From a phage, in the sequence record PZ445451.1: 64,000 nucleotides of DNA; one strand, given 5' to 3'. The notes beneath the pieces are model-generated. The model had not been told where the DNA came from. It made no database searches and saw only the letters and a list, made by a program, of their open reading frames with translations. The position numbers were made by a program, and so were the translations under genes. Below, piece by piece: positions 20,087-49,890 of the stretch (position 1 is its first letter; each line of letters begins with the position of its first letter).

Positions 20087-20683
20087 TTACTCGAACCAAT
20101 CGTCGCCAGCGCCAAACGCTTTAACTACATCGTAAATGTCAAGCCCAGCTTTACCTACACCATATGCTTTCAGTTTCCATTCACTGTCTTCCCGTACCAG
20201 GGAGGCAACGTGGCAAATGGTGTTACCTGCAAGTTCTGGAGCCAAGAAGTCAAAGTCCAGCAGTTCAACATTACGTTCATCATCGAAGATTTTAAGGAAA
20301 CCTTCGGTAGCGTGACCAAGGCGTTTCTTACCCGTTTCGTCATCAATAGTAATTACGAATGCAATTTCCTGTGCTTCAGCAGAGATATTATCCAGTGTAA
20401 CATCAATCTGCTCCATTTGTCCTACACCGTCACGAACATCTTCACCTGCAAAAGTAGAACGTTCAGGATCAAATTTCTGTGCGTAGCATACCAGGTGGCG
20501 AGGAGACAACAGTTCCGGCAGACCAGATGCATTGTGTCGGCAAATCAGAGCACTAACATCCAGATCCAGTTTTTCGTTAGATTTCCAAGAGAATTCCAGA
20601 CGAATACGTTTCAGTGCTGGTGCGATCTTTTTCAGAGAAACTTTTTCGCTAGAACCTTTTTTCAGGGAAATTTTCTGAGTCAT
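20087..20683 (-). CDS. terD: TerD-family protein
   Basis: Blocks LDLDVSALIC, GEDVRDGVGQMEQIDVTL, acidic IDDETG and C-terminal WKLKAYGVGKAGLDIYDVVKAFG match the TerD fold pattern. Confidence 0.8.
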   Translation of the reverse strand: MTQKISLKKGSSEKVSLKKIAPALKRIRLEFSWKSNEKLDLDVSALICRHNASGLPELLSPRHLVCYAQKFDPERSTFAGEDVRDGVGQMEQIDVTLDNISAEAQEIAFVITIDDETGKKRLGHATEGFLKIFDDERNVELLDFDFLAPELAGNTICHVASLVREDSEWKLKAYGVGKAGLDIYDVVKAFGAGDDWFE

Positions 20684-20755
20684 AATTTATTATCTCCTTT
20701 GTTGTTAATTTACGTTGTCTATTTTACTAATCTTTTCTACAAAGTCAAGCGTTTT

Positions 20756-21550
20756 TTACGCTTTTGCTCCAAATTTTTTAACCCACTCACCAAACTCTTC
20801 GGATAGTAGTTTATCGTAAAGTTCTTCGTCAGACAAGGACAAATCTGCAATACCGATAAAATCAACATTATCATATTCTTTTGCCAAGTCTTTCAGGAAT
20901 TTAAAGTTTGCATTACCTACACCAACCATAAACCAGTAAACAGGTGTATTGCGGTGTTTGTTCAGTAAGCTACGTACTGCTGAAGTATCCATGTTCTCCC
21001 CGTCAGTTTGGAAGAAAATCATTGCAGGAGTACGATCAACTTGTGCATCAGTATCTACAACCTGTTCTACAACAGTACGTGTAACTTCTACAAGTTCTTT
21101 TTTACCAGTTAGTTTAGCAAGGAAACCCTTAGCCGGAACTTCTTCATACTCAACGACTTCGCGTGTAATATTTTTCATAGGTACACTACCGAAGTATGTA
21201 TCATAGATCTCTTGCATTACTGGGGCATAAGCTGTACCACCATTGATGCAAACATTAGACATACAAGAGCCGACATAATCATCATATACATCAGCCGTTG
21301 CAGGAGGCAGTTCAAAAGAAGAACTATTGAAAGCCCACATGTCAATCTGTGCATTATCATCAAACTTCATACCAAACGGCAGCAGCTTACCTACAAAATC
21401 ACTAACAGTGCCATCACGATACAGCTCACACATACTACCCGAAATGTCTAAGGCGCTACCGACACGAAGAACAACATCGTTAATCTTTTTCTTACGCAGA
21501 GATACAGTAAGAGTTTCTTGACGTTTTTTAAGACTGATTTTATTGGACAT
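20756..21550 (-). CDS. von Willebrand factor A domain protein (TerY-like)
   Basis: MIDAS-type DISGSM motif, later FQTDGE; adjacent to TerD as in bacterial ter loci. Confidence 0.7.
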   Translation of the reverse strand: MSNKISLKKRQETLTVSLRKKKINDVVLRVGSALDISGSMCELYRDGTVSDFVGKLLPFGMKFDDNAQIDMWAFNSSSFELPPATADVYDDYVGSCMSNVCINGGTAYAPVMQEIYDTYFGSVPMKNITREVVEYEEVPAKGFLAKLTGKKELVEVTRTVVEQVVDTDAQVDRTPAMIFFQTDGENMDTSAVRSLLNKHRNTPVYWFMVGVGNANFKFLKDLAKEYDNVDFIGIADLSLSDEELYDKLLSEEFGEWVKKFGAKA

Positions 21551-21551
21551 A

Positions 21552-21821
21552 TTATTTCTCCTTTCTGAGTGTAATGTTAGTAACTTCTAAATCCACTTCT
21601 ACCATTTCTGTATCATATGAAATACAGCTAAGTTGACCTCTTTGTGAACCGTTCAGACACATCGCTTGGTTTGTATTAACCTTAATAAACACTAAGTTTC
21701 TGAACGTATCTAAACCAGAATCTTGATAGGCAACATAATATACAAATGTATCACCTGCGTCAAGTTCTCCAAAACATTTAGGTTCATCTGATTTGTCGTC
21801 TTTGATATTAAATTTAAGCAC
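21552..21821 (-). CDS. Hypothetical protein
   Basis: 89 aa ORF within Ter-like cluster. Confidence 0.45.
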   Translation of the reverse strand: MLKFNIKDDKSDEPKCFGELDAGDTFVYYVAYQDSGLDTFRNLVFIKVNTNQAMCLNGSQRGQLSCISYDTEMVEVDLEVTNITLRKEK

Positions 21822-22377
21822 TATCTCCTCCTTTACCTACTTTCCAACCTAAATAGAAAGCCTCTCTGGTGATTTTTTGCAACTCGTTTAAAGAGATAGT
21901 TACAACTAAATCATCTTCAATTTCTAGCTTTGAGTCTTCTTCTGTCTCAATGCAAGTATTATGCACTTTGTGGTAAGGATTGTCAACACGTTTAAATTTA
22001 TTATTTTCAGTGCTGAAGAAGCAATCTGGATCTTCTTCTCCATCACCCCAACCCTGGTTAGGGTCTTCTTCAGATCTTTCTGTTGGGATTTCACCTGTAA
22101 AGTGCTCTTCTAACACCATAGCAATACCATCCCCAAGATCGGAAGAGAACATCAAATTACAAACTTCTTCCCAAGGCATAGACCACTTGAATCTTTTACG
22201 ATTGCCATGTTTATCTTCTTCGTTAGAGAAAACACTACCATAGCTATCATAATTGCCATACATCTCTTCAACAACTTTACCACCTTTCAAAAGAAATAGG
22301 TAGCAAGGAGAGCCATCGAAAGAGGTAGAAAGAGCAGCATTACCAGACTCTTTGCACAAGAAACTAAAACATCCCAT
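21814..22377 (-). CDS. Hypothetical acidic protein
   Basis: 187 aa ORF within Ter-like cluster. Confidence 0.5.
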   Translation of the reverse strand: MGCFSFLCKESGNAALSTSFDGSPCYLFLLKGGKVVEEMYGNYDSYGSVFSNEEDKHGNRKRFKWSMPWEEVCNLMFSSDLGDGIAMVLEEHFTGEIPTERSEEDPNQGWGDGEEDPDCFFSTENNKFKRVDNPYHKVHNTCIETEEDSKLEIEDDLVVTISLNELQKITREAFYLGWKVGKGGDSA

Positions 22378-22577
22378 TATACACCAGCCTTAAGATCAAT
22401 TATAGCCAAAGTTGTTTCAGAGTGTGTTTGCTCGTCTACAGGTGCAGTCATATGATAATACAAAAAATCTTCAACATCATACCAATCTGACTCTTGACCT
22501 TGTTTCCAACCATCAATGAAAGCATCTTCCATAATGGTTTGTAACTCTTCACGAGTTAAGTGAATATCTTTACTCAT
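22377..22577 (-). CDS. Hypothetical small protein
   Basis: 66 aa ORF with start/stop overlap to neighbours. Confidence 0.4.
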   Translation of the reverse strand: MSKDIHLTREELQTIMEDAFIDGWKQGQESDWYDVEDFLYYHMTAPVDEQTHSETTLAIIDLKAGV

Positions 22578-22810
22578 TACACATTCTCCTCTTTTACCAA
22601 TTCCATCGTTGAACTATCAAAACCATCTTTAGAAGAATAGGTATAGACAGAACGTAGTTCTCGCAGGACAGTAAATACATTAGGATCATCTAACCAAGCA
22701 TCCTGGAGGAGAACATAACGATCTTCATTGTCGTACTGGACAGCGATCATAGAACCAGACAGTTTGTAAATTTTAATATTCATAATATATTTCTCCTTAA
22801 AGTAGACCAC
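22577..22810 (-). CDS. Hypothetical small protein
   Basis: 77 aa ORF, translationally coupled. Confidence 0.4.
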   Translation of the reverse strand: MVYFKEKYIMNIKIYKLSGSMIAVQYDNEDRYVLLQDAWLDDPNVFTVLRELRSVYTYSSKDGFDSSTMELVKEENV

Positions 22811-23900
22811 GTTTAACAGTTTGAATCATACCATCTTCAAGAGATTGCACTTCTTGAATGTAATCAATACGAGCAGCACGGGCTTCAGTGTTGATTCGGT
22901 TAGTTTCTTCCAACATTTTAACTAAGTTTTCTTGATCACGACGTAATGTTTCAATATCCAATACTTGACGATTAGCAAGTTGTGTAGCTTCAATCTGGTT
23001 TTGTGCAGCCAGATCACTACCCATTGCAATAGCAGCATTAAATTCATTCAGTACGTTGTTCTGTGTATCGGCTGCTTTCTTCTGGCGTAGACTTTCAATA
23101 TACATAGAAAAGTTTGCAGAGTAAGCAGGGATAACGTTATTCACAATATTACGGGCTGATCGCATCAAACTTGCAGATACTTTCTGCATACTTTGTACAC
23201 GTGGCCCCATCTGAACACAGAGTAAACGTAAGGCTTTCAGGTCTGCAATACGAATTTCAAGCAGATCCATAGTATCACGAGTACGTTTACGCTCTTCTAC
23301 TTCATTTTCAGGTAGTGTATTAAGGCGAACTTCTTCTTTTTCATAAGTAGCTGTTAGAAGCTCTATATCCCTGTTTAAGCTAAGAGCATATTTTGCAATA
23401 GCCTCTTCTAAACGTTGCAGATATCGTAAAGAATCTTCTTCTTTTTTCAAGTCTGTTTGGAGTATCTTTACCAAACCTTCAATACGGTTATTGATGGTGT
23501 CAAATTCTCCAAACAAATCTTCTTTCATACCTAAAACTTTCTTAACTAGTTTACCTAAACCTTTAGATTGTTTAATAGAGTTAGGATCAAGTTGCTTTGC
23601 TTGCTTAATAAGTGCAGTTAAACGTTCACTCATTTCATCTCCCTGAGATGAACGCTGGTGTTTAAGCACTTCAGCATTAAGGTTACGAAGAGTAAGTCCT
23701 GCATCAGCACCAACCTGTTCAATCTCTTCACGAGACATTGGAGGCAGCATTTGTACAGGGCGTGCAACAGCAGGGGCATATACAGGACTTGCATCCATAG
23801 CACTTGGAGCAAACAAAGACTTACTTTTTTCTGTTGTTGCCGTGAATACACTCATTTCAGACGGTTTGCTTTTTACGGCACTGATAAAAGGACTGGACAT
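22797..23900 (-). CDS. TelA-like (toxic anion resistance family) coiled-coil protein
   Basis: 367 aa largely alpha-helical/coiled-coil protein of TelA size, flanked by TerD, vWA and TerC genes; assignment from context and composition. Confidence 0.45.
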   Translation of the reverse strand: MSSPFISAVKSKPSEMSVFTATTEKSKSLFAPSAMDASPVYAPAVARPVQMLPPMSREEIEQVGADAGLTLRNLNAEVLKHQRSSQGDEMSERLTALIKQAKQLDPNSIKQSKGLGKLVKKVLGMKEDLFGEFDTINNRIEGLVKILQTDLKKEEDSLRYLQRLEEAIAKYALSLNRDIELLTATYEKEEVRLNTLPENEVEERKRTRDTMDLLEIRIADLKALRLLCVQMGPRVQSMQKVSASLMRSARNIVNNVIPAYSANFSMYIESLRQKKAADTQNNVLNEFNAAIAMGSDLAAQNQIEATQLANRQVLDIETLRRDQENLVKMLEETNRINTEARAARIDYIQEVQSLEDGMIQTVKRGLL

Positions 23901-23968
23901 TCAATTTCCTCCATATTCTTTAGTAGATGGTGATACCTCTGTACCACCATCATAACACAAATTAAGTA

Positions 23969-24820
23969 TTAAACAAACATATCTAAATAATTTGTAGTAA
24001 TAAATGCTCCATCTGCTTCCAGATTAACATAACCAGTAGCATTAGTGGTTAAGAAATCCAGATCGAAGGACTCTTTAACACCACGTACCTCAACACGAGA
24101 AATATCGAATACAGGTAGTGTAACAGCCTCTTCGTGCAATACCGTACCTTTGTAGGTTGCCTTAATGATAAACTTGATATTACCCGTTCCCGCATCATAC
24201 AAAACACTTTCAAAGCCTTTGAGAGTATACTTATCACCAGAGGTGAAGTGCAAAGTTGCTTTGTTTACAGTACGTTTTTTACGAGGAGTTCCTTTCACAC
24301 GTTTATGATCACTACGTTTTTTGTATTTAGGAATGAATACAAACGATACACTCTCAAGAAAGGTATCAACATCAAGGATTTTAATATCCTCTGTTGCAGC
24401 AAATTTTGAAGTCGTTGCATCAAAATGCTTTTCCCTGCGATCATACATAAAGATATCAAAACGATCTTCTAAATCAAACAAATTATGTATCTTAATTTCA
24501 GAATGTTTGCACATTGCAGCAACCTTAAACTCTTCAAAACGTGGGTGTTCTACAAGCTCTTCAAGTTTTACACCAAAGACAGTATATTGCTTCGAAGTCT
24601 TTTCTGGTGTTGGCATTACAGAAGCATAGTCCCCGATTGCGCTCTTAAAGCAAAATTGCTCTTGACCTGTATTTTTACCAACGAATTTACAGTATTCGTC
24701 ATCGTGCATACTTTCTTTGGTAGTACCAACAAACTCAAAACCATCTTTATTCTTCTCAAGAATTTCTTGATTAAAGATCCAACCTTCCAGGCGATACACT
24801 TTACCAACTTCTAGTTTCAT
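23969..24820 (-). CDS. Hypothetical protein
   Basis: 283 aa ORF within Ter-like cluster. Confidence 0.5.
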   Translation of the reverse strand: MKLEVGKVYRLEGWIFNQEILEKNKDGFEFVGTTKESMHDDEYCKFVGKNTGQEQFCFKSAIGDYASVMPTPEKTSKQYTVFGVKLEELVEHPRFEEFKVAAMCKHSEIKIHNLFDLEDRFDIFMYDRREKHFDATTSKFAATEDIKILDVDTFLESVSFVFIPKYKKRSDHKRVKGTPRKKRTVNKATLHFTSGDKYTLKGFESVLYDAGTGNIKFIIKATYKGTVLHEEAVTLPVFDISRVEVRGVKESFDLDFLTTNATGYVNLEADGAFITTNYLDMFV

Positions 24821-24855
24821 CTGTTTCTCCTTCTTATTTAATCTGTATTAAATTA

Positions 24856-25446
24856 TTAACGACGACGTGAGCTACTAAAACTACGTTTCGACGAAGAATA
24901 ACTTTTCGAAGACTTACTATAAGAGCTAATAGGACTTGAGTAAGACTTACGAGCAGAGTAATCACTATTCACTTTTGTTGTTGATGGGCGTGAATACGTT
25001 TGTACACTTTGCTGCTTAATTGTGTTTTGTTTAGTGGTTGTATATGTATTTACAGGTTTATCATAAAAACTACGCTTTTGTGTTGTATATGATTTACTGT
25101 TAGTTGTAGGAGCAGCATTGTTATTAATAATGGTTGTATTGCTACCGCCATCTCTATAACCACCACCGCCACTATTACCACTCAACATATGACCAAGAAG
25201 CATACCTGTAGCAAATTCACCTACACCAGAAGAACTACTACCACCTCCTTGCACAACAACTGTTGAAGGTTGTGCAGGTGCTGCTTGAACAACTTGAGGT
25301 GCAGGTTGATTTACATATTGTTCATCTACCATCTGATTTGGTGTTTGTTGGTAACGTTGATTTTGTACATTTTCAGAATCATCACAACCTACCAGCAATG
25401 CACTACCTAATACAACTGCAACAATAAAAGATTTAATGTTTTTCAT
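24856..25446 (-). CDS. Lipoprotein with low-complexity Q/S/T-rich region
   Basis: Start at internal ATG after GAGGG; signal peptide ending in LLVGC lipobox; serine-rich basic tail. Confidence 0.55.
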   Translation of the reverse strand: MKNIKSFIVAVVLGSALLVGCDDSENVQNQRYQQTPNQMVDEQYVNQPAPQVVQAAPAQPSTVVVQGGGSSSSGVGEFATGMLLGHMLSGNSGGGGYRDGGSNTTIINNNAAPTTNSKSYTTQKRSFYDKPVNTYTTTKQNTIKQQSVQTYSRPSTTKVNSDYSARKSYSSPISSYSKSSKSYSSSKRSFSSSRRR

Positions 25447-25639
25447 TTGTAACCCTCTCATTTAAAGTCTCAACACAATTTTTAAAATCCCTAGAGAAAC
25501 AATACATCTGTTCTCCGTTCCTGTTGATAGTAATTGTATGGTTATCAATGTATGTTGTCAAGATAAAAATCAAACAAAATAACCCTAAAGCAAAACAAAT
25601 ATTTTCAAACAGAATCCAAAGAACACGTAAAACCACCAT
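25433..25639 (-). CDS. Small membrane protein
   Basis: 68 aa ORF with one hydrophobic helix (FALGLFCLIFILTTYI). Confidence 0.35.
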   Translation of the reverse strand: MVVLRVLWILFENICFALGLFCLIFILTTYIDNHTITINRNGEQMYCFSRDFKNCVETLNERVTNEKH

Positions 25640-25654
25640 CAGATCACCTCAACA

Positions 25655-25672
25655 AAGCCCCCGAAGGGGCTT
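25655..25672 (-). terminator. Hairpin AAGCCCC-CGAA-GGGGCTT after TerC gene
   Basis: 7 bp stem followed by TTTGTT on minus strand. Confidence 0.5.
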
Positions 25673-25678
25673 AATGAA

Positions 25679-26656
25679 TTAAGCAACAGTCTGGTCTTCT
25701 TTTTCAGGGAAGATTAAACTTGCAATAACACCCAGCCCCAGAGTACCTAACACAATATACATACTGATCGTCGGATCAATGTGTGCTGGCAGGAAACTCA
25801 CTTTTGCGTGCAGAGTTTCTGCAAACGGGTGATACATCAGTTTTACACCCACAAATACCAGGACTACGATAACTGCTTTCTCCAGATGAACCAAATATTT
25901 CAGTGCAACACTAAGGACAAAGAACAGAGCACGTAGACCTAAAATTGCACACAGCATTGAAGAAAATACAAGCAGAGGTTCTTGTGTCACTGCAATTACT
26001 GCTGGAACAGAGTCTACTGCAAAGATTACGTCAACCATTTCCATTACAAACACACAAACCAGAGCCGGAGTTGCTACACGAACACCATTTTTGATTGTGA
26101 AGAACTTCTCACCATCCATCTGATCAGATACAGGGAACAGCTTACGAACAATGCGAGTAACCCAGTGTTTAGAGTAATCAACTTCTGCGTCATTATCTCC
26201 AGCGAATACCATTTTAGCTGCACAGAAAAGGATGACCGCACCGAAGAAGATATTAACATACCAGCCCAAACTCAACAAGTAAGTGCCTACTGCTACAAAC
26301 ACACCTCGGAAGACAATCGCACCTGCAATACCCCAAAGTAGAATCTTGTGTTGCAAGTGTGTGCTTTTAATACCAAAACTTGCGAATACTGCCACAAATA
26401 CTACTAAGTTATCTACAGAAAGAGATTTCTCCAACACATACCCACTCAAGAACAAGCTCGCAAAATCAGCACCGTGTTGGAAGTATACAAAACCATAGTA
26501 GGCTAATGATACCCCAATCCAGAAAATTGACCAACCAACTGCCGATTTAAATGAAATCTCTTTGTTTTCTCTGTGTCCAAAGAAATCAATACAAATCGAC
26601 AACACTAAAATACCCACTAAAACAACCACATCAATAATTGGGAAACCCAGTTGCAT
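25679..26656 (-). CDS. terC: TerC-family integral membrane protein
   Basis: Multi-pass membrane protein with SLSVDNLVVFVAVFASFGI, the DNxxVF signature of TerC. Confidence 0.85.
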   Translation of the reverse strand: MQLGFPIIDVVVLVGILVLSICIDFFGHRENKEISFKSAVGWSIFWIGVSLAYYGFVYFQHGADFASLFLSGYVLEKSLSVDNLVVFVAVFASFGIKSTHLQHKILLWGIAGAIVFRGVFVAVGTYLLSLGWYVNIFFGAVILFCAAKMVFAGDNDAEVDYSKHWVTRIVRKLFPVSDQMDGEKFFTIKNGVRVATPALVCVFVMEMVDVIFAVDSVPAVIAVTQEPLLVFSSMLCAILGLRALFFVLSVALKYLVHLEKAVIVVLVFVGVKLMYHPFAETLHAKVSFLPAHIDPTISMYIVLGTLGLGVIASLIFPEKEDQTVA

Positions 26657-26733
26657 TCTCTTCTCCTCTTTAATGCGGAGGACAATCCTCCGCTCTATGT
26701 CTTATACTATAAACTGTTTTTAAAGAAAGTCAA

Positions 26734-26982
26734 CTAGTTCAGTTCTGTAATTTTAAGTTTATCTTCTTTGTTAATGATAGGGAAAGCTACAGCATCACCT
26801 ACATCATCAATAAAGCAAATAGCAAGACCACCTTCCACTTTGCTAACCTGACCGTTAAAGGCATGATACGGGGCAGGAACTTCATCCCCATCTTCAATGA
26901 GAATAGCCTCGTAAACCTTGCCGATAGTACAATCACGGGTGTTTATAAATTTTTCAAGCACTTCAACATTTACTTTACGCAT
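26734..26982 (-). CDS. Hypothetical small protein
   Basis: 82 aa ORF upstream of TerC. Confidence 0.45.
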   Translation of the reverse strand: MRKVNVEVLEKFINTRDCTIGKVYEAILIEDGDEVPAPYHAFNGQVSKVEGGLAICFIDDVGDAVAFPIINKEDKLKITELN

Positions 26983-26996
26983 ATAAAGATCCTCTC

Positions 26997-27203
26997 TTAT
27001 TTGTTAGATTGAAAGATACCACGGAGTACCGCAAGAATGAACGTCACACAGACTACACTCCAAAACGTTACAGGAACATGATGCCAGTCTAAGCCGATAA
27101 TGTCAATCATATAATTGTATGCTAAAAGCAGTAGCCAACTAGGGATTAACACAATCAAGAACACAACAATAAAACAACCTAATACTGCTAAAACACCTGC
27201 CAT
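26997..27203 (-). CDS. Small two-helix membrane protein
   Basis: 68 aa, two hydrophobic segments. Confidence 0.45.
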   Translation of the reverse strand: MAGVLAVLGCFIVVFLIVLIPSWLLLLAYNYMIDIIGLDWHHVPVTFWSVVCVTFILAVLRGIFQSNK

Positions 27204-27212
27204 ACTTTCTCC

Positions 27213-27929
27213 TTATTTCAGTTTGTAAACAATTACATTTAAACCTTTGTTTACTAGAGTTTCTTCGATCATAAGTTTTACAATATTCCAAGAACCTCCA
27301 GCCAAACCACAACCAAGCATTGGTAAACCTACAATTTTACCGCCTGAAGATACAACATCGTCTCCCATACTATCTAGCGCATTGTAGATAGCTTCATAAT
27401 TCAGGTCACGCTTACCTTCCTCACGACTACTATAACCATATTGTCCATATAAATTATAAATTGTCAAATTGTTTTCTGTATATTTGGTAAACGTACCTAA
27501 TTTTTTATAATCACCACGTTTAGTGGCACAATCTGCTTTAAACGCACCAGGCCACTTGCTTTTAATTTTTGGTGCAATACCACTACCCATAGTGCAAAAA
27601 CAGTTACAGCAGTGTGCTATAGCGTCTATATCGCCTCTCTCGGCTGCTGCTAAAAGATCACCGTATACCTCAACGATACCTGCTGGATAACTTGTTACAA
27701 TTTCATCTTCCCAGTACATTTTCTCTACACCACCGATCAGTGCAAAGTTTTGTGTAATGCGATCATCAATATAGTTAAGACCTGAAACATACACAGCGTA
27801 TTCATCCTGTGCTGTAATACCTTGCACACGAATTCTTAAGACACCATCTTTATCTGTTGCTACACGCCCAAAATCTTTTTCTGTAATATTGGTGATAGGA
27901 TCTCCGAAAGTCATTACTTTATTAGACAT
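27213..27929 (-). CDS. Rossmann-like nucleotide-processing domain protein (macro- or LOG/SLOG-like)
   Basis: DAIAHCCNCFCTMGSGIA and VGLPMLGCGLAGGSW Gly-rich loops resembling macro or LOG motifs; start set at ATG after AAGGGG, overlapping PRTase stop by 8 nt. Confidence 0.45.
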   Translation of the reverse strand: MSNKVMTFGDPITNITEKDFGRVATDKDGVLRIRVQGITAQDEYAVYVSGLNYIDDRITQNFALIGGVEKMYWEDEIVTSYPAGIVEVYGDLLAAAERGDIDAIAHCCNCFCTMGSGIAPKIKSKWPGAFKADCATKRGDYKKLGTFTKYTENNLTIYNLYGQYGYSSREEGKRDLNYEAIYNALDSMGDDVVSSGGKIVGLPMLGCGLAGGSWNIVKLMIEETLVNKGLNVIVYKLK

Positions 27930-28779
27930 AATAATCCCCTTTAACATTAGATTTGTTGATAATGTTGCTTTCAAAAAATTGACGTAGGAAATCAAAGTTC
28001 TCTTTGTATTTTTCAACGTTATTGTAACCTTCTGCAAGGCAACCAAAGAACAGTTGTTCTACATAATACAAAGGAAGTTGTGAAAGTGCAATTTTAAAAT
28101 CAACTTCGCTTTGACTCATTAGATACTTAATAGGACGAACCAAACATTTAGCATCAGTTTCTTGCTTAATCATTTTAATAAAAGCTGCCAGATTGTTGAT
28201 ATAGTTGAAGTTAAGTGCAGCTTCGGTATTGGCTTCTGTACCTTCATACTTTGCAAAGTACAGGAAAAACGTATCGTTTTCAACACCTTCTTTGTCTAAA
28301 ATTTCAATAAGTTTTTCTTCGTGTGTTCCTGTAATATTAACATCATCAATGAAAATCAGAGTTTTATTACCCCAGAAATCACGATTGATAGAGAAAGTGT
28401 CACCATCGATCAAAGCCTTACGATCTTCTTTGCTAAGAAATCCATAATCATTAATGTAGCTCACTTTACGATGAACGATATCCCACTCCACTGCTTTACC
28501 TCCTTTGATAGAGATTAGGTAGTTGAGGTGATCTACAAAATGTTCAGATAACACTGTAGCTGCATTTTTCACATAGTTATATGGAGATGGAATAACAACA
28601 AAACTTTCATTTACCAGTCGTTCTTCATACTTAGAAAAGAAACTTTCAGCCAGAATGCGCCCCATTCTTTTTGCTGCCTGGTTACTGCCAAACTTTAGCT
28701 TGGAATAATCTGCAATGTTAAATTTTGCTTCCTTCAGGTTAGTAAAAGTATTAGCAAAATGTTGAATTTGATTACGCAT
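27922..28779 (-). CDS. Type I phosphoribosyltransferase-domain protein
   Basis: PRPP-binding signature LIFIDDVNITGTHEE. Confidence 0.6.
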   Translation of the reverse strand: MRNQIQHFANTFTNLKEAKFNIADYSKLKFGSNQAAKRMGRILAESFFSKYEERLVNESFVVIPSPYNYVKNAATVLSEHFVDHLNYLISIKGGKAVEWDIVHRKVSYINDYGFLSKEDRKALIDGDTFSINRDFWGNKTLIFIDDVNITGTHEEKLIEILDKEGVENDTFFLYFAKYEGTEANTEAALNFNYINNLAAFIKMIKQETDAKCLVRPIKYLMSQSEVDFKIALSQLPLYYVEQLFFGCLAEGYNNVEKYKENFDFLRQFFESNIINKSNVKGDYYV

Positions 28780-29428
28780 TAATAAGTTCCTCTTTTTTAA
28801 GTTTAGCCAACAAGTCTTCTGGATTAATAATATGACAGAACTTCATCCCTATGTCAACAGCTTTTCCATCATAGATCAAACTATCTCCAACGTGTAAGAT
28901 CTCCTCTGGTGCGAGATCAAACGTTACCATTTCATCAAAAGAGAGTTTAAAAAACCTGGGATCTGGTTTACACAAGCAAAACTCATCAGAAAAATGCATA
29001 AAGTCAAATGGTAATTTTGTCAAGCCAGAATATACAGCTAAGAAACTACCAGGTACAAAATTGGTATTGCTTTTAATACTCAAAGAATAGGTTGAACTTA
29101 GCTCTTCCAACTTCTTGCAAAGTTCAGGGTTTAATGTTGGAGGATGTTTTATAAACATTGCTAAACAGTCTCTTTTTAACCCATCCACCTTATCAAGATC
29201 AATGTTCAAATGAGCAGAAAGTGTTTCCCAAGCATTTCTAGATGTTCCACAAATGCCTTTTTCTGCTTTTAAATCCAAGAGAGTTTTTACCTCTTTATAT
29301 ACGGTAGCTGCTTCTACCTCAGAACAAGAGGCATACTCGGCAATAACCTTGTTGCGTTCTTCTGCATACAAAGGATTAGCAGTAATAAGAGTATTCCATA
29401 CATCAAAAGAAATATGCTTAACAGTCAT
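28772..29428 (-). CDS. HAD-superfamily hydrolase (phosphatase-like)
   Basis: N-terminal ISFDVWNTLI motif I-like block and C-terminal HVGDSLIYDGK motif IV-like block; overlaps PRTase start by 8 nt. Confidence 0.55.
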   Translation of the reverse strand: MTVKHISFDVWNTLITANPLYAEERNKVIAEYASCSEVEAATVYKEVKTLLDLKAEKGICGTSRNAWETLSAHLNIDLDKVDGLKRDCLAMFIKHPPTLNPELCKKLEELSSTYSLSIKSNTNFVPGSFLAVYSGLTKLPFDFMHFSDEFCLCKPDPRFFKLSFDEMVTFDLAPEEILHVGDSLIYDGKAVDIGMKFCHIINPEDLLAKLKKEELINA

Positions 29429-29800: not shown

Positions 29801-29807
29801 ATAAATA

Positions 29808-29827
29808 AAGGAGGCTTTCGCCTCCTT
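29808..29827 (-). terminator. Hairpin AAGGAGGC-TTTC-GCCTCCTT after ATPase gene
   Basis: 8 bp stem followed by T-rich run on minus strand. Confidence 0.55.
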
Positions 29828-29834
29828 TTATCAC

Positions 29835-30995
29835 TTAGTAAGAACGACCACCAAACACATACTCTGTGTAGTTTTTACGTTCTTTGTTTTTAATAACAAC
29901 TTCAATGTTGTTACCTTTATCATCGGTGAACATAAAGTGATAACCGTCACCACCCATTGTACGAATGTGTTTTTCATCATACGTTAGCAAGATACGGTCT
30001 ACACCCCAGTAGTAGTCACCTTCTTCATCTTTATCTTCTACGGTAACAATCCCTTCCATTTCAGGAAGATGCTCTTCACCTAGTTTATGGTCTACAGCTA
30101 CAACATAACGATTACCGCTAAACAAACCTTGTGCTGTCATACCGTCAATATCGGTATCTGACGAAACATCTCCTGTACGATCTACACCGTTAACTTTCAG
30201 AAGTTTAACCTCTTTTGCAGCATAGCGGTGTTCAGTAATACTGATACCCATCAATGCAAGTGCATCAGAGAATTTGTCATTAGGGTAACGGTTAAGTTCT
30301 TCTACTAATGACTGAACAATATCAAAGTTCAAATCCACGGAGAGATTATAAAGCGTTTCAAAATCTGGTAAGAAGGCTTTGTTCTCCAGATTTTTAGCCA
30401 GATAATCATCCATAGTAGCTTTAGGTAGTTTCTTATAGCTAAAACTGTAGAAAATACGGCTAGGACGATTACGCAAAAATTCTGATACATAACCATCATT
30501 TTTAGTCAATACAAACAGTTTGTCGTAGCCACCAACACCATCCAGCAGGGTAAGCAAACCATCTTGTGCATCTTTTTCAGCATACAGTTTATCAAATTCA
30601 TCGATCATAATCATCACAGGTTGTGTGATTTTAGACATAAAATTGATAAAGCCTTCACCATTAAAAGCACTACCGATAGAAATAGTAGGAATACCCATTT
30701 CACGAAGAGCAGAAGACAGCATTTTAGCTTGCAAAGTTTTACCGCTACCTTTCGTACCTTCAAGGAGAACACCTGTGTTTTTACCTTTGCGGCTAAGGAA
30801 CGTTTTGATAATACGTTCTGATTTATCATCAGTATCACCGTATGTTACTGAAGGGACTTCCATATCGTTTTTAGGATACAGGAAGAACTCACCACTTTGA
30901 GTAACACCTACACCAAAAGTTCCTGCTGGAATTTCTTCAATATCTGTACCAGATTTCTGACGCAGAAAGATTTGATTGCCGAATACTGTAAACAT
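29835..30995 (-). CDS. P-loop NTPase (AAA-like), paralog of 46733-47860
   Basis: Walker A GTKGSGKT, Walker B IMIDEFDK, LLTLLDG and NRPSRIFY blocks shared with the plus-strand paralog. Confidence 0.6.
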   Translation of the reverse strand: MFTVFGNQIFLRQKSGTDIEEIPAGTFGVGVTQSGEFFLYPKNDMEVPSVTYGDTDDKSERIIKTFLSRKGKNTGVLLEGTKGSGKTLQAKMLSSALREMGIPTISIGSAFNGEGFINFMSKITQPVMIMIDEFDKLYAEKDAQDGLLTLLDGVGGYDKLFVLTKNDGYVSEFLRNRPSRIFYSFSYKKLPKATMDDYLAKNLENKAFLPDFETLYNLSVDLNFDIVQSLVEELNRYPNDKFSDALALMGISITEHRYAAKEVKLLKVNGVDRTGDVSSDTDIDGMTAQGLFSGNRYVVAVDHKLGEEHLPEMEGIVTVEDKDEEGDYYWGVDRILLTYDEKHIRTMGGDGYHFMFTDDKGNNIEVVIKNKERKNYTEYVFGGRSY

Positions 30996-49338: not shown

Positions 49339-49890
49339 ATGCGGATTACTGATAAGTATGTGTTCTTCTTTTCAGCAAAAGATGAATTTAGCAACTGGTA
49401 TCTATCATCTTTTATTGAACCTTTAGCACCCAAGTATAATAATTCTATTACAAGTTCTGTTGAATTTACTTGTGTGGAACAATATATGATGTGGAGAAAA
49501 GCATGTTTGTTTTATGATTACAGTATTGCATCTTCTATTTTAACCGGAGATCTAAGATATACAGGAGAAAAAGAACAAGCATATTATAAGCGACTAGGCA
49601 GATTAGTTAAAGATTATGATGAAGATACCTGGACTTCTTTACGGGAGAAGATTGTCAAACGTGGTTTGTATCTTAAATACACACAAAATGAAGATCTCAA
49701 AAATAAACTTATAGCCTACGCAGATAAGGAGTTCGTAGAGGCAAGCCCCTATGATTCTATTTATGGTATCAAAATGGGGATGTGGGATCGTGATGTGGAA
49801 AATAAGGACTGTTGGAAAGGACAAAATCTTTTAGGAAAATGGCATACAGACCTTGCTGTTTATCTAAAAACACAATCTGATATTTCCTGA
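49339..49890 (+). CDS. NADAR (YbiA-like) domain protein
   Basis: FFFSAKDEFSNWY, CVEQYMMWRKACLF and DSIYGIK...GQNLLGKWHTDL align with the conserved YbiA blocks. Confidence 0.6.
   Translation: MRITDKYVFFFSAKDEFSNWYLSSFIEPLAPKYNNSITSSVEFTCVEQYMMWRKACLFYDYSIASSILTGDLRYTGEKEQAYYKRLGRLVKDYDEDTWTSLREKIVKRGLYLKYTQNEDLKNKLIAYADKEFVEASPYDSIYGIKMGMWDRDVENKDCWKGQNLLGKWHTDLAVYLKTQSDIS

Follow-up and report, generated by a model that had tools for sequence, protein, structure and literature searches.

The closest described relatives of the gene analyzed here are macrodomains that take ADP-ribose off nucleic acids. The bacterial protein SCO6735 efficiently strips DarT-made ADP-ribose off thymidine in single-stranded DNA (ssDNA) in vitro and rescues cells from DarT (PMC9411070), and human TARG1 (OARD1) hydrolyzes thymidine-linked ADP-ribose on DNA (T-ADPr DNA), uracil-linked ADP-ribose on RNA (U-ADPr RNA), and glutamate-linked ADP-ribose on protein (Glu-ADPr protein). 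Among phages, Macro domains were found in 41% of myoviruses in a published survey (PMC9503650), and the PhiKZ-type protein AdfM clears DNA of T-ADPr in vitro and confers protection from DarTG2 (PMC13309987), while deletion of T4 Tk.4, which has likewise been named AdfM, sensitizes T4 to DarTG2 (bioRxiv 10.1101/2025.11.20.689424). Here, we describe a gene at positions 27213-27929 (minus strand) of a 64,000-nucleotide stretch of phage DNA (sequence record PZ445451.1; the whole stretch is called the window below). It encodes a macrodomain of the TARG1/DarG/SCO6735 class preceded by a previously undescribed N-terminal domain, the N-module, and it lies in a phage-borne Ter system immediately downstream of genes for a HAD phosphatase and a PRTase_3 phosphoribosyltransferase (PRTase). 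Judging by its relatives and its active site, we consider it fairly probable that the protein is an orphan-antitoxin-like glycohydrolase that takes ADP-ribose off thymine in phage DNA and thereby counters DarT2-type defense.

The window has the sequence of Escherichia phage PaulScherrer (100% identity; MZ501100.1), a phi92-like BASEL phage (Bas60; Stephanstirmvirinae, Justusliebigvirus). The PaulScherrer record holds the same gene, with 100% identity, as bas60_0070 and annotates it as a "putative macrodomain protein." The open reading frame (ORF) picked out by an earlier reading of the bare sequence (hereafter the original prediction) is real, and it does overlap the PRTase stop codon by 8 nt and lie closely packed with the genes for PRTase and HAD:

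27213..27929, minus strand: complete coding sequence (CDS) of the N-module-Macro protein (bas60_0070), 238 aa plus stop (from the ORF list and translation)
27922..27929, minus strand: 8-nt overlap ATGTCTAA of the macro start with the PRTase_3 stop, the PRTase stop codon TAA lying at 27922-27924
27935..27942, minus strand: Shine-Dalgarno sequence AAAGGGGA, 5 nt upstream of the ATG at 27929 (read from the sequence)

In MZ501100.1, bas60_0070 starts 18 nt further upstream, at an ATG at 27947, giving 244 aa. Because the ATG at 27929 is preceded, at a distance of 5 nt, by the strong Shine-Dalgarno sequence AAAGGGGA and the ATG at 27947 by none, the former is the better supported start, and the deposited one is probably 18 nt too far upstream. 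Another 54 genomes of phi92-like phages encode the full-length protein, as does one divergent relative of metagenomic origin (53% identical), and this conservation, together with a Pfam Macro match above the cutoff and a predicted structure of high confidence (see below), establishes that the gene is not a chance ORF.

The product is a two-domain protein, and the original prediction, which had described a single macro-like protein, was right about its C-terminal two-thirds and overlooked the separate module formed by residues 1-84:

27678..27929, minus strand: N-module (residues 1-84), acidic (isoelectric point [pI] 4.4), all-beta, with the conserved motif D-x-GR-[IV]-A ... F-x-[LI]-[IV]-GG-x3-M-[YF]-W
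27216..27677, minus strand: macrodomain (residues 85-238) of the TARG1/DarG/SCO6735 (ALC1-like) class, assigned by Pfam, PDB sequence matches, AlphaFold2, Foldseek, and PADLOC

Pfam Macro (PF01661) matches residues 106-217 with 31.5 bits against a curated gathering cutoff of 22, and the closest solved structures by sequence are SCO6735 (5e3b; E = 2e-15), BT1257 (2fg1; 1e-14), TARG1 (3e-10), and DarG (7e-4); a DarG model matches in NCBIfam (3e-13) and in PADLOC (5.7e-14), in both cases over the macro part alone. An AlphaFold2 model, built from 55 homologues, has a predicted local distance difference test score (pLDDT) above 90 over residues ~81-238 and displays the three-layer alpha/beta/alpha macro fold. 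In agreement with this, the top Foldseek matches in the PDB are TARG1 (E = 4.6e-13; template modeling [TM] score 0.90, target-normalized), BT1257, DarG, and SCO6735, all with probability 1.00, and macrodomains account for 49 of the 50 matches listed, all with E <= 9e-08 (the odd one, at rank 37, is the de novo designed serine hydrolase OSH55). We assign residues ~85-238 with high confidence to the TARG1/DarG/SCO6735 class of macrodomains and, within it, to the Gln-type subclass that also holds SCO6735, BT1257, and T4 Tk.4.

Both Gly-rich loops quoted in the original prediction are present (DAIAHCCNCFCTMGSGIA, residues 102-119; LPMLGCGLAGGSW, residues 202-214). They had been thought to fit either a macro domain or a LOG/SLOG nucleotide phosphoribohydrolase, a choice to be settled by hidden Markov model and structure-based classification, and it is the macro half of this statement that stands, by Pfam, NCBIfam, PADLOC, and AlphaFold2/Foldseek alike. 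A LOG/SLOG protein would share with bas60_0070 the superficial likeness of Gly-rich loops in a Rossmann-like alpha/beta protein, but no such family matches at E values up to 0.1 in Pfam, NCBIfam, PHROGs, or PADLOC, none is found among the 50 listed Foldseek matches in the PDB, and the PGGxGTxxE motif is absent from the protein sequence. With neither profile nor fold speaking for it, the LOG/SLOG assignment is excluded, its residual probability being negligible.

The residues on which SCO6735 depends have counterparts in the macrodomain:

27573..27626, minus strand: loop 1 (residues 102-119, DAIAHCCNCFCTMGSGIA), with His106, Asn109, and Gly115-x-Gly117 aligned with His24, Asn27, and the G-x-G of SCO6735
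27396..27443, minus strand: Gln163, aligned with SCO6735 Gln85, and the long "mobile loop" (residues 163-178)
27288..27326, minus strand: phosphate-binding loop (residues 202-214, LPMLGCGLAGGSW), with Gly206, Gly208, and Ala210, the two glycines aligned with SCO6735 Gly126 and Gly128

SCO6735 has no TARG1-type Lys/Asp dyad and relies on Gln85 (Q85A is inactive), on Asn27, which fixes Gln85 in place (activity is lost in N27S), and on Gly126 and Gly128, and its subclass is marked by a mobile loop that is 5 residues longer than in TARG1 and DarG (PMC9411070). The protein studied here resembles SCO6735 (PDB: 5E3B) and BT1257 (PDB: 2FG1) in its Gln-type active site, which replaces the Lys/Asp of TARG1, in the Asn, His, and Gly residues, and in the length of the mobile loop, the HMMER alignment running through residues 163-178 with a gap of at most 1 residue; it differs from both, which are bacterial orphan proteins, in possessing the N-module. 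Human TARG1 (PDB: 4J5S) is the best structural match (TM 0.90; 28% identity), but its Lys84/Asp125 dyad is replaced by Gln163/Ala210, with Ala210 standing at the Asp125 position in the alignment. Among the 55 homologues, Gly115-Ser-Gly117 and Gly206-Cys-Gly208 are invariant or nearly so, and the catalytic positions His106, Asn109, Gln163, Gly206, Gly208, and Ala210 are nearly invariant in the family, Gln163 and Asn109 matching Gln85 and Asn27 of SCO6735. Because His106, Asn109, Gln163, Gly206, and Gly208 occur together with an equally long loop, and hardly vary across the family, we predict a catalytically competent Gln-type ALC1-like macrodomain.

If so, the macrodomain would bind ADP-ribose on thymine N3 of ssDNA (and possibly also on uracil in RNA) and free it, with Asn109 holding Gln163 in place, Gln163 positioning the distal ribose, and the Gly-rich loops clamping the diphosphate. 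During infection, it would act as an AdfM-type counter-defense by erasing DarT2-type ADP-ribosylation of replicating phage DNA, beside the NADAR protein of the phage, which erases the guanine modification of DarT1 type. The phage's NADAR gene is found at:

49339..49890, plus strand: NADAR gene bas60_0111, annotated "YbiA-like N-glycosidase" (Pfam PF08719, 125 bits)

The NADAR protein of Bas60, AdfN^Bas60, neutralizes DarT1 but not DarTG2 (PMC11825919), and bas60_0111, which lies ~21 kb from the macrodomain gene, is presumably this validated anti-DarTG1 factor. By analogy with the AdfN and AdfM of T4, the simplest reading is that bas60_0070 would be the thymine-specific partner of the guanine-specific NADAR. 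We favor an anti-DarT2 function because the catalytic set matches, because deletion of the T4 homologue has the phenotype described above, because the macro family is far more widespread than PRTase_3, and because a NADAR is encoded in the same phage. T4 Tk.4 and the macro domain share 30% identity (E = 9e-18), so that bas60_0070 is a phage DarG-like macrodomain homologous to a validated AdfM, and tblastn matches to the family, among them the T-even tk.4 genes, come from 2,989 of 50,697 phage records and from many genomic contexts, as expected for a self-sufficient counter-defense gene. The relevance to ADP-ribosylating host defenses foreseen in the original prediction is thus well supported by homology to the anti-DarTG2 macrodomains of T4 and PhiKZ.

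Compared with T4 Tk.4, which is also a phage stand-alone macrodomain with the His/Asn/Gln set, a PADLOC DarG match, and a NADAR anti-DarTG1 factor in the same phage, bas60_0070 carries the 84-aa N-terminal module in addition, and its anti-DarTG2 role is a predicted one; Tk.4 consists of the macro domain alone (155 aa), its mobile loop is shorter, and its gene adjoins the tk and vs genes instead of a Ter/PRTase cluster. DarG of Thermus aquaticus (PDB: 5M3E) belongs to the same macrodomain class (Foldseek E = 5e-10, TM 0.81), and removal of T-ADPr from DNA would be expected of both, but Lys80 of DarG, like Lys78 of PhiKZ AdfM, is catalytic where bas60_0070 has Gln163, and both the C-terminal DarT-binding domain of DarG and its neighboring darT gene are missing here. 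In line with this, the DarG equivalog model of NCBIfam (NF048014) is matched at positions 4-147 of 338 with 49.8 bits, well below its cutoff of 250, the PADLOC DarG match covers model positions 6-144 of 329, and there is no PADLOC DarT match among the scanned neighbors, the macro gene being adjoined by PRTase_3 and a gene for a 68-aa membrane protein. All in all, bas60_0070 is a member of the AdfM/DarG-like phage macrodomains, already annotated as macro, and the N-module is its only unusual feature.

Several observations weigh against an anti-DarT2 function. The lysines that position DNA in SCO6735, Lys34 and Lys89, are not kept in the alignment (Ser116 and Ser167 here), and where SCO6735 is strongly basic, bas60_0070 has a near-neutral macro domain (pI 7.7) and an acidic N-module. 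T4 Tk.4 likewise has no equivalents of Lys34 and Lys89 in the alignment, yet is protective, and therefore the lysines are not required for anti-DarTG2 function. A small-molecule role is hinted at by the conserved position of the gene in its phage group, directly downstream of the PRTase/HAD pair and overlapping it, and by the presence of the N-module on a MazG-like nucleotide pyrophosphatase as well. The physiological substrate could also be a different one, since O-acetyl-ADP-ribose and Glu/Asp-linked protein ADP-ribose are likewise cleaved by this class of macrodomains. Finally, a literature search turned up no experiment on the bas60_0070 protein or on Bas60 or other phi92-like phages on DarTG2 hosts.

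Most homologues of the macro part are macro-only proteins of ~150 aa, and the extra ~84 residues are found on a macrodomain only in the phi92-like proteins and in the metagenomic protein P0002 (53% identical). The N-module is homologous (pairwise E = 7e-7) to the N-terminal half of 180-190-aa proteins of related ~145-155-kb myoviruses, whose genes sit between PRTase_3 and a separate macro gene. The C-terminal half of these proteins is MazG-like: 22 of 26 members have a sub-threshold Pfam MazG match, and the proteins contain invariant ETGECAD and GECxDVIICAxDLA motifs and are ~40% identical to "MazG-like pyrophosphatase" genes of T4-like Klebsiella and Enterobacter phages. These acidic motifs resemble the MazG-type metal-binding motif. 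The phi92-like fusion is collinear with the N-module/MazG-like and macro gene pair except for one clean ~100-residue gap that corresponds to the MazG-like half, and it amounts to the pair without its MazG half; no MazG-like sequence is found elsewhere in the window.

The N-module is also found by itself (71 aa) and joined to a different C-terminal region, and it is rare: an exhaustive search of 1.84 billion representatives gave 6 matches, two of which (P0121 and P0125) look like repeat-protein noise, and a profile search of a word-indexed database gave 3 N-module proteins only. A sequence-profile search of the PDB with the N-module/MazG-like family returned no significant match. The N-module is a previously undescribed, small acidic beta-barrel-like domain, and our guess is that it probably serves as an adaptor or targeting domain. 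In Citrobacter phage Tr1 (L007, 6983-7590), the N-module/MazG-like frame is annotated as two CDSs of 142 and 60 aa, and the tblastn matches to N-module and MazG-like sequence extend over the two, pointing to a frameshift, an error in sequencing, or a gene that is really split.

The macro gene is co-located, on the same strand and within ~10 kb, with genes for PRTase_3, HAD, TerC, TelA, a vWA-TerF-like protein, and TerD:

29807..29828, minus strand: terminator-like hairpin, the upstream bound of the block
28772..29428, minus strand: HAD family-IA phosphatase, the constant partner of PRTase_3 (Pfam PF00702, 27.6 bits; NCBIfam HAD-IA)
27922..28779, minus strand: PRTase_3 (ComF-like, Ter-associated phosphoribosyltransferase), the upstream neighbor of the macro gene (Pfam PF15610, 142 bits)
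26734..27203, minus strand: two small conserved ORFs after the macro gene (68 aa, a predicted membrane protein, and 82 aa)
25679..26656, minus strand: TerC membrane protein (Pfam PF03741, 132.6 bits)
22797..23900, minus strand: TelA (Pfam PF05816, 116 bits)
20756-21550, minus strand: vWA-TerF-like protein (Pfam PF10138, 134 bits)
20087-20683, minus strand: TerD (Pfam PF02342, 98 bits)

Positions 20087-29428 (minus strand) of the window make up an almost complete Ter system carried by the phage, of the same type as those of some jumbo phages (PMC7824862). TerD, TerF, TelA, and TerC each carry the label "hypothetical protein" in the PaulScherrer record. The block sm67-sm51-HAD-PRTase_3-Macro-sm68-sm82 is tightly packed, with gaps of 11, 1, -8, -8, 9, and 14 nt (the HAD stop and the PRTase_3 start overlap by 8 nt at 28772-28779, just as the PRTase_3 stop and the macro start do), and is separated from TerC by 77 nt. 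A promoter scan gave 29 promoter-like sites versus 26 +/- 5 in shuffled sequence (i.e., no excess), and the bounds of the transcription unit are therefore deduced from gene spacing and one hairpin only. In the summary that PMC7824862 gives of the work of Anantharaman, Iyer & Aravind (2012), as far as its text was accessible, the PRTases and HAD enzymes of Ter systems are predicted to synthesize nucleoside derivatives, and Macro is not listed there as a component; no ATP-grasp protein or TIM-barrel lyase turned up among the scanned genes of the phage cluster. PRTase_3 has no match in the PDB, and with no solved relative, no substrate can be deduced for it.

A census of 20 related and distant loci shows how far the macro gene follows the pair. 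HAD and PRTase_3 are adjacent, and often overlapping, in every lineage examined, including E. coli myoviruses and large phages of Xanthomonas, Rhizobium, Brevundimonas, and Caulobacter, and PRTase_3 is present in 157 phage records. The pair and the genes that occupy the slot after it lie, in locus coordinates, at:

L013 5317-6837: HAD-PRTase_3 pair
L014 5298-6840: HAD-PRTase_3 pair
L019 7333-8816: HAD-PRTase_3 pair
L020 4093-5608: HAD-PRTase_3 pair
L021 7316-8849: HAD-PRTase_3 pair
L003 7457-8011: slot gene after HAD-PRTase_3
L013 6838-7782: slot gene after HAD-PRTase_3
L020 5857-6420: slot gene after HAD-PRTase_3

The occupant of this slot varies by lineage: it may be Macro, the N-module/MazG-like pyrophosphatase, or, in more distant phages, an SPFH/Band-7 protein or (as in Rhizobium phage RHph_TM61) a Nudix hydrolase. 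Only in the phi92-like/phAPEC8-like group does Macro follow the pair directly, follow the N-module/MazG-like gene, or appear fused to the N-module. In L013, L014, Rhizobium phage RHph_TM61, and Caulobacter phage CcrColossus, the 6-8 kb around the pair contain no macro gene, and in XaC1 and one related ~153-kb phage it lies 7.5 kb and ~10 kb away, respectively, so Macro is not a constant partner of HAD-PRTase_3 across lineages. Within the phage group, identity is 76-82% for PRTase_3, 53-67% for the macrodomain, and 30-40% for the N-module. HAD-PRTase_3 is an independent, widely conserved Ter-linked module.

These data bear on an explanation that we regard as a minor possibility, namely, that the macrodomain would be the third enzyme of a small-molecule pathway with HAD and PRTase_3 and would act on a soluble (ADP-)ribosyl or phosphoribosyl derivative (e.g., ADP-ribose-1''-phosphate, O-acetyl-ADP-ribose, or a compound made from, or giving rise to, the "nucleoside-like metabolite" predicted for Ter systems), the N-module tethering it to the pathway as it would tether the MazG-like enzyme of the relatives. 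The tight packing of the block and its two 8-nt start/stop overlaps point in this direction, as does the order HAD-PRTase_3-(N-module/MazG-like)-Macro, which is kept while the macrodomain diverges (50-67% identity), but HAD-PRTase_3 is self-contained in 157 phage records, in several of which no macro gene is nearby or the nearest is 7.5-10 kb off, and the macro family is ~20 times as widespread as PRTase_3. The N-module is found only in the slot after PRTase_3, fused to the MazG-like nucleoside triphosphate pyrophosphatase or to Macro, and nucleotide-derivative hydrolases recur in that slot, which is filled by a Nudix hydrolase in Rhizobium phages; against this, PRTase_3 is far more conserved than either the macrodomain or the N-module, which suggests different selective regimes. 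A metabolic role would also fit the predicted synthesis of nucleoside derivatives by Ter systems (PMC7824862), the occurrence of the macro family directly beside genes annotated as phosphoribosyl pyrophosphate synthetase in Vibrio phages K354 and 184E37.1 (H53 and H54), and a 368-kb contig (L005, 1997-6911) in which the macro gene sits beside a second macro gene, near NUDIX and NAMPT and SIR2 genes. PRTase_3, however, with no solved relative, offers no candidate substrate, and the T4 homologue has been validated as a stand-alone anti-DarT2 factor with no PRTase_3 nearby. In the 368-kb contig and the Vibrio phages, the macro family is recurrently associated with ribose-phosphate and NAD-related genes. 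The original prediction had suggested that the protein could process a nucleotide intermediate and be relevant to NAD-depleting defenses; neither a role against such defenses nor one in processing an intermediate of PRTase/HAD receives direct support, the pair and the macro family each being common without the other. The NAD+ reconstitution pathways NARP1, NARP2, and NARP3 were considered and rejected, as none of their enzymes matches PRTase_3 or HAD: the enzymes are a Prs-like kinase and an NAMPT-like transferase in NARP1, and NAMPT and a nicotinamide mononucleotide (NMN) adenylyltransferase in NARP2, while NARP3 consists of PnuC and NadR. NARP1 and NARP2 recycle ADP-ribose and convert nicotinamide via NMN.

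We see a somewhat smaller chance that the protein is an active ADP-ribosylhydrolase directed at other targets, such as RNA (e.g., uracil-linked) or protein (Glu/Asp-linked) modified by other host or phage ADP-ribosyltransferases. SCO6735 and TARG1 do also cleave uracil-linked ADP-ribose on ssRNA (PMC13036486) and Glu/Asp-linked ADP-ribose on protein (PMC9411070), but SCO6735 strongly prefers T-ADPr DNA over protein substrates, and the known in vivo phenotypes of phage homologues are all against DarTG2. The missing DNA-positioning lysines and the lack of a basic character would agree with a target other than DNA, were it not that T4 AdfM, too, protects against DarTG2 without the lysines. Smaller still is the chance we give to the N-module being an adaptor that brings interchangeable hydrolases (Macro and the MazG-like enzyme) to the Ter HAD-PRTase_3 module, with the macrodomain acting on a soluble metabolite instead of, or besides, DarT-modified DNA.

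Should bas60_0070 indeed be an anti-DarT2 factor, the phi92-like and phAPEC8-like phages would carry erasers for both kinds of DNA ADP-ribosylation, the NADAR for guanine and the macrodomain for thymine, in parallel to T4, and would be predicted to resist both DarTG1 and DarTG2. These phages have a broad host range and are of interest for therapy, and such knowledge would be useful for host-range prediction and phage engineering, although it extends known biology rather than changing it. Less expected is the swap of the N-module between a MazG-like enzyme and a macrodomain, always after the conserved HAD-PRTase_3 pair in a phage-borne Ter system. The function of the Ter-linked PRTase and HAD proteins has been unexplained since 2012, and the compact phage version makes a tractable test case; if the N-module did serve as an adaptor and the macrodomain acted on a soluble metabolite, this would provide a first biochemical handle on what the "nucleoside-like metabolite" module of Ter systems makes or destroys. 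We consider the N-module, together with the HAD-PRTase_3 Ter module, to be the higher-value lead.

Two further genes of the region may be mentioned:

29835-30995, minus strand: 386-aa AAA+ ATPase, heading the region upstream of the block
23969-24820, minus strand: 283-aa protein between TerC and TelA, with a 31-residue motif in common with P0124

According to the HIDEN-SEQ preprint, the V5-like phage Bas54 requires a "MoxR ATPase" to get past the predicted defense system DS-28; homology between this protein and the AAA+ ATPase of the window could not be established. The 283-aa protein and P0124, which combines the N-module with another C-terminal region, share the 31-residue motif PRKK..V.K.T..H..G..YT.K...SV (45% identity; pairwise E = 5e-5).

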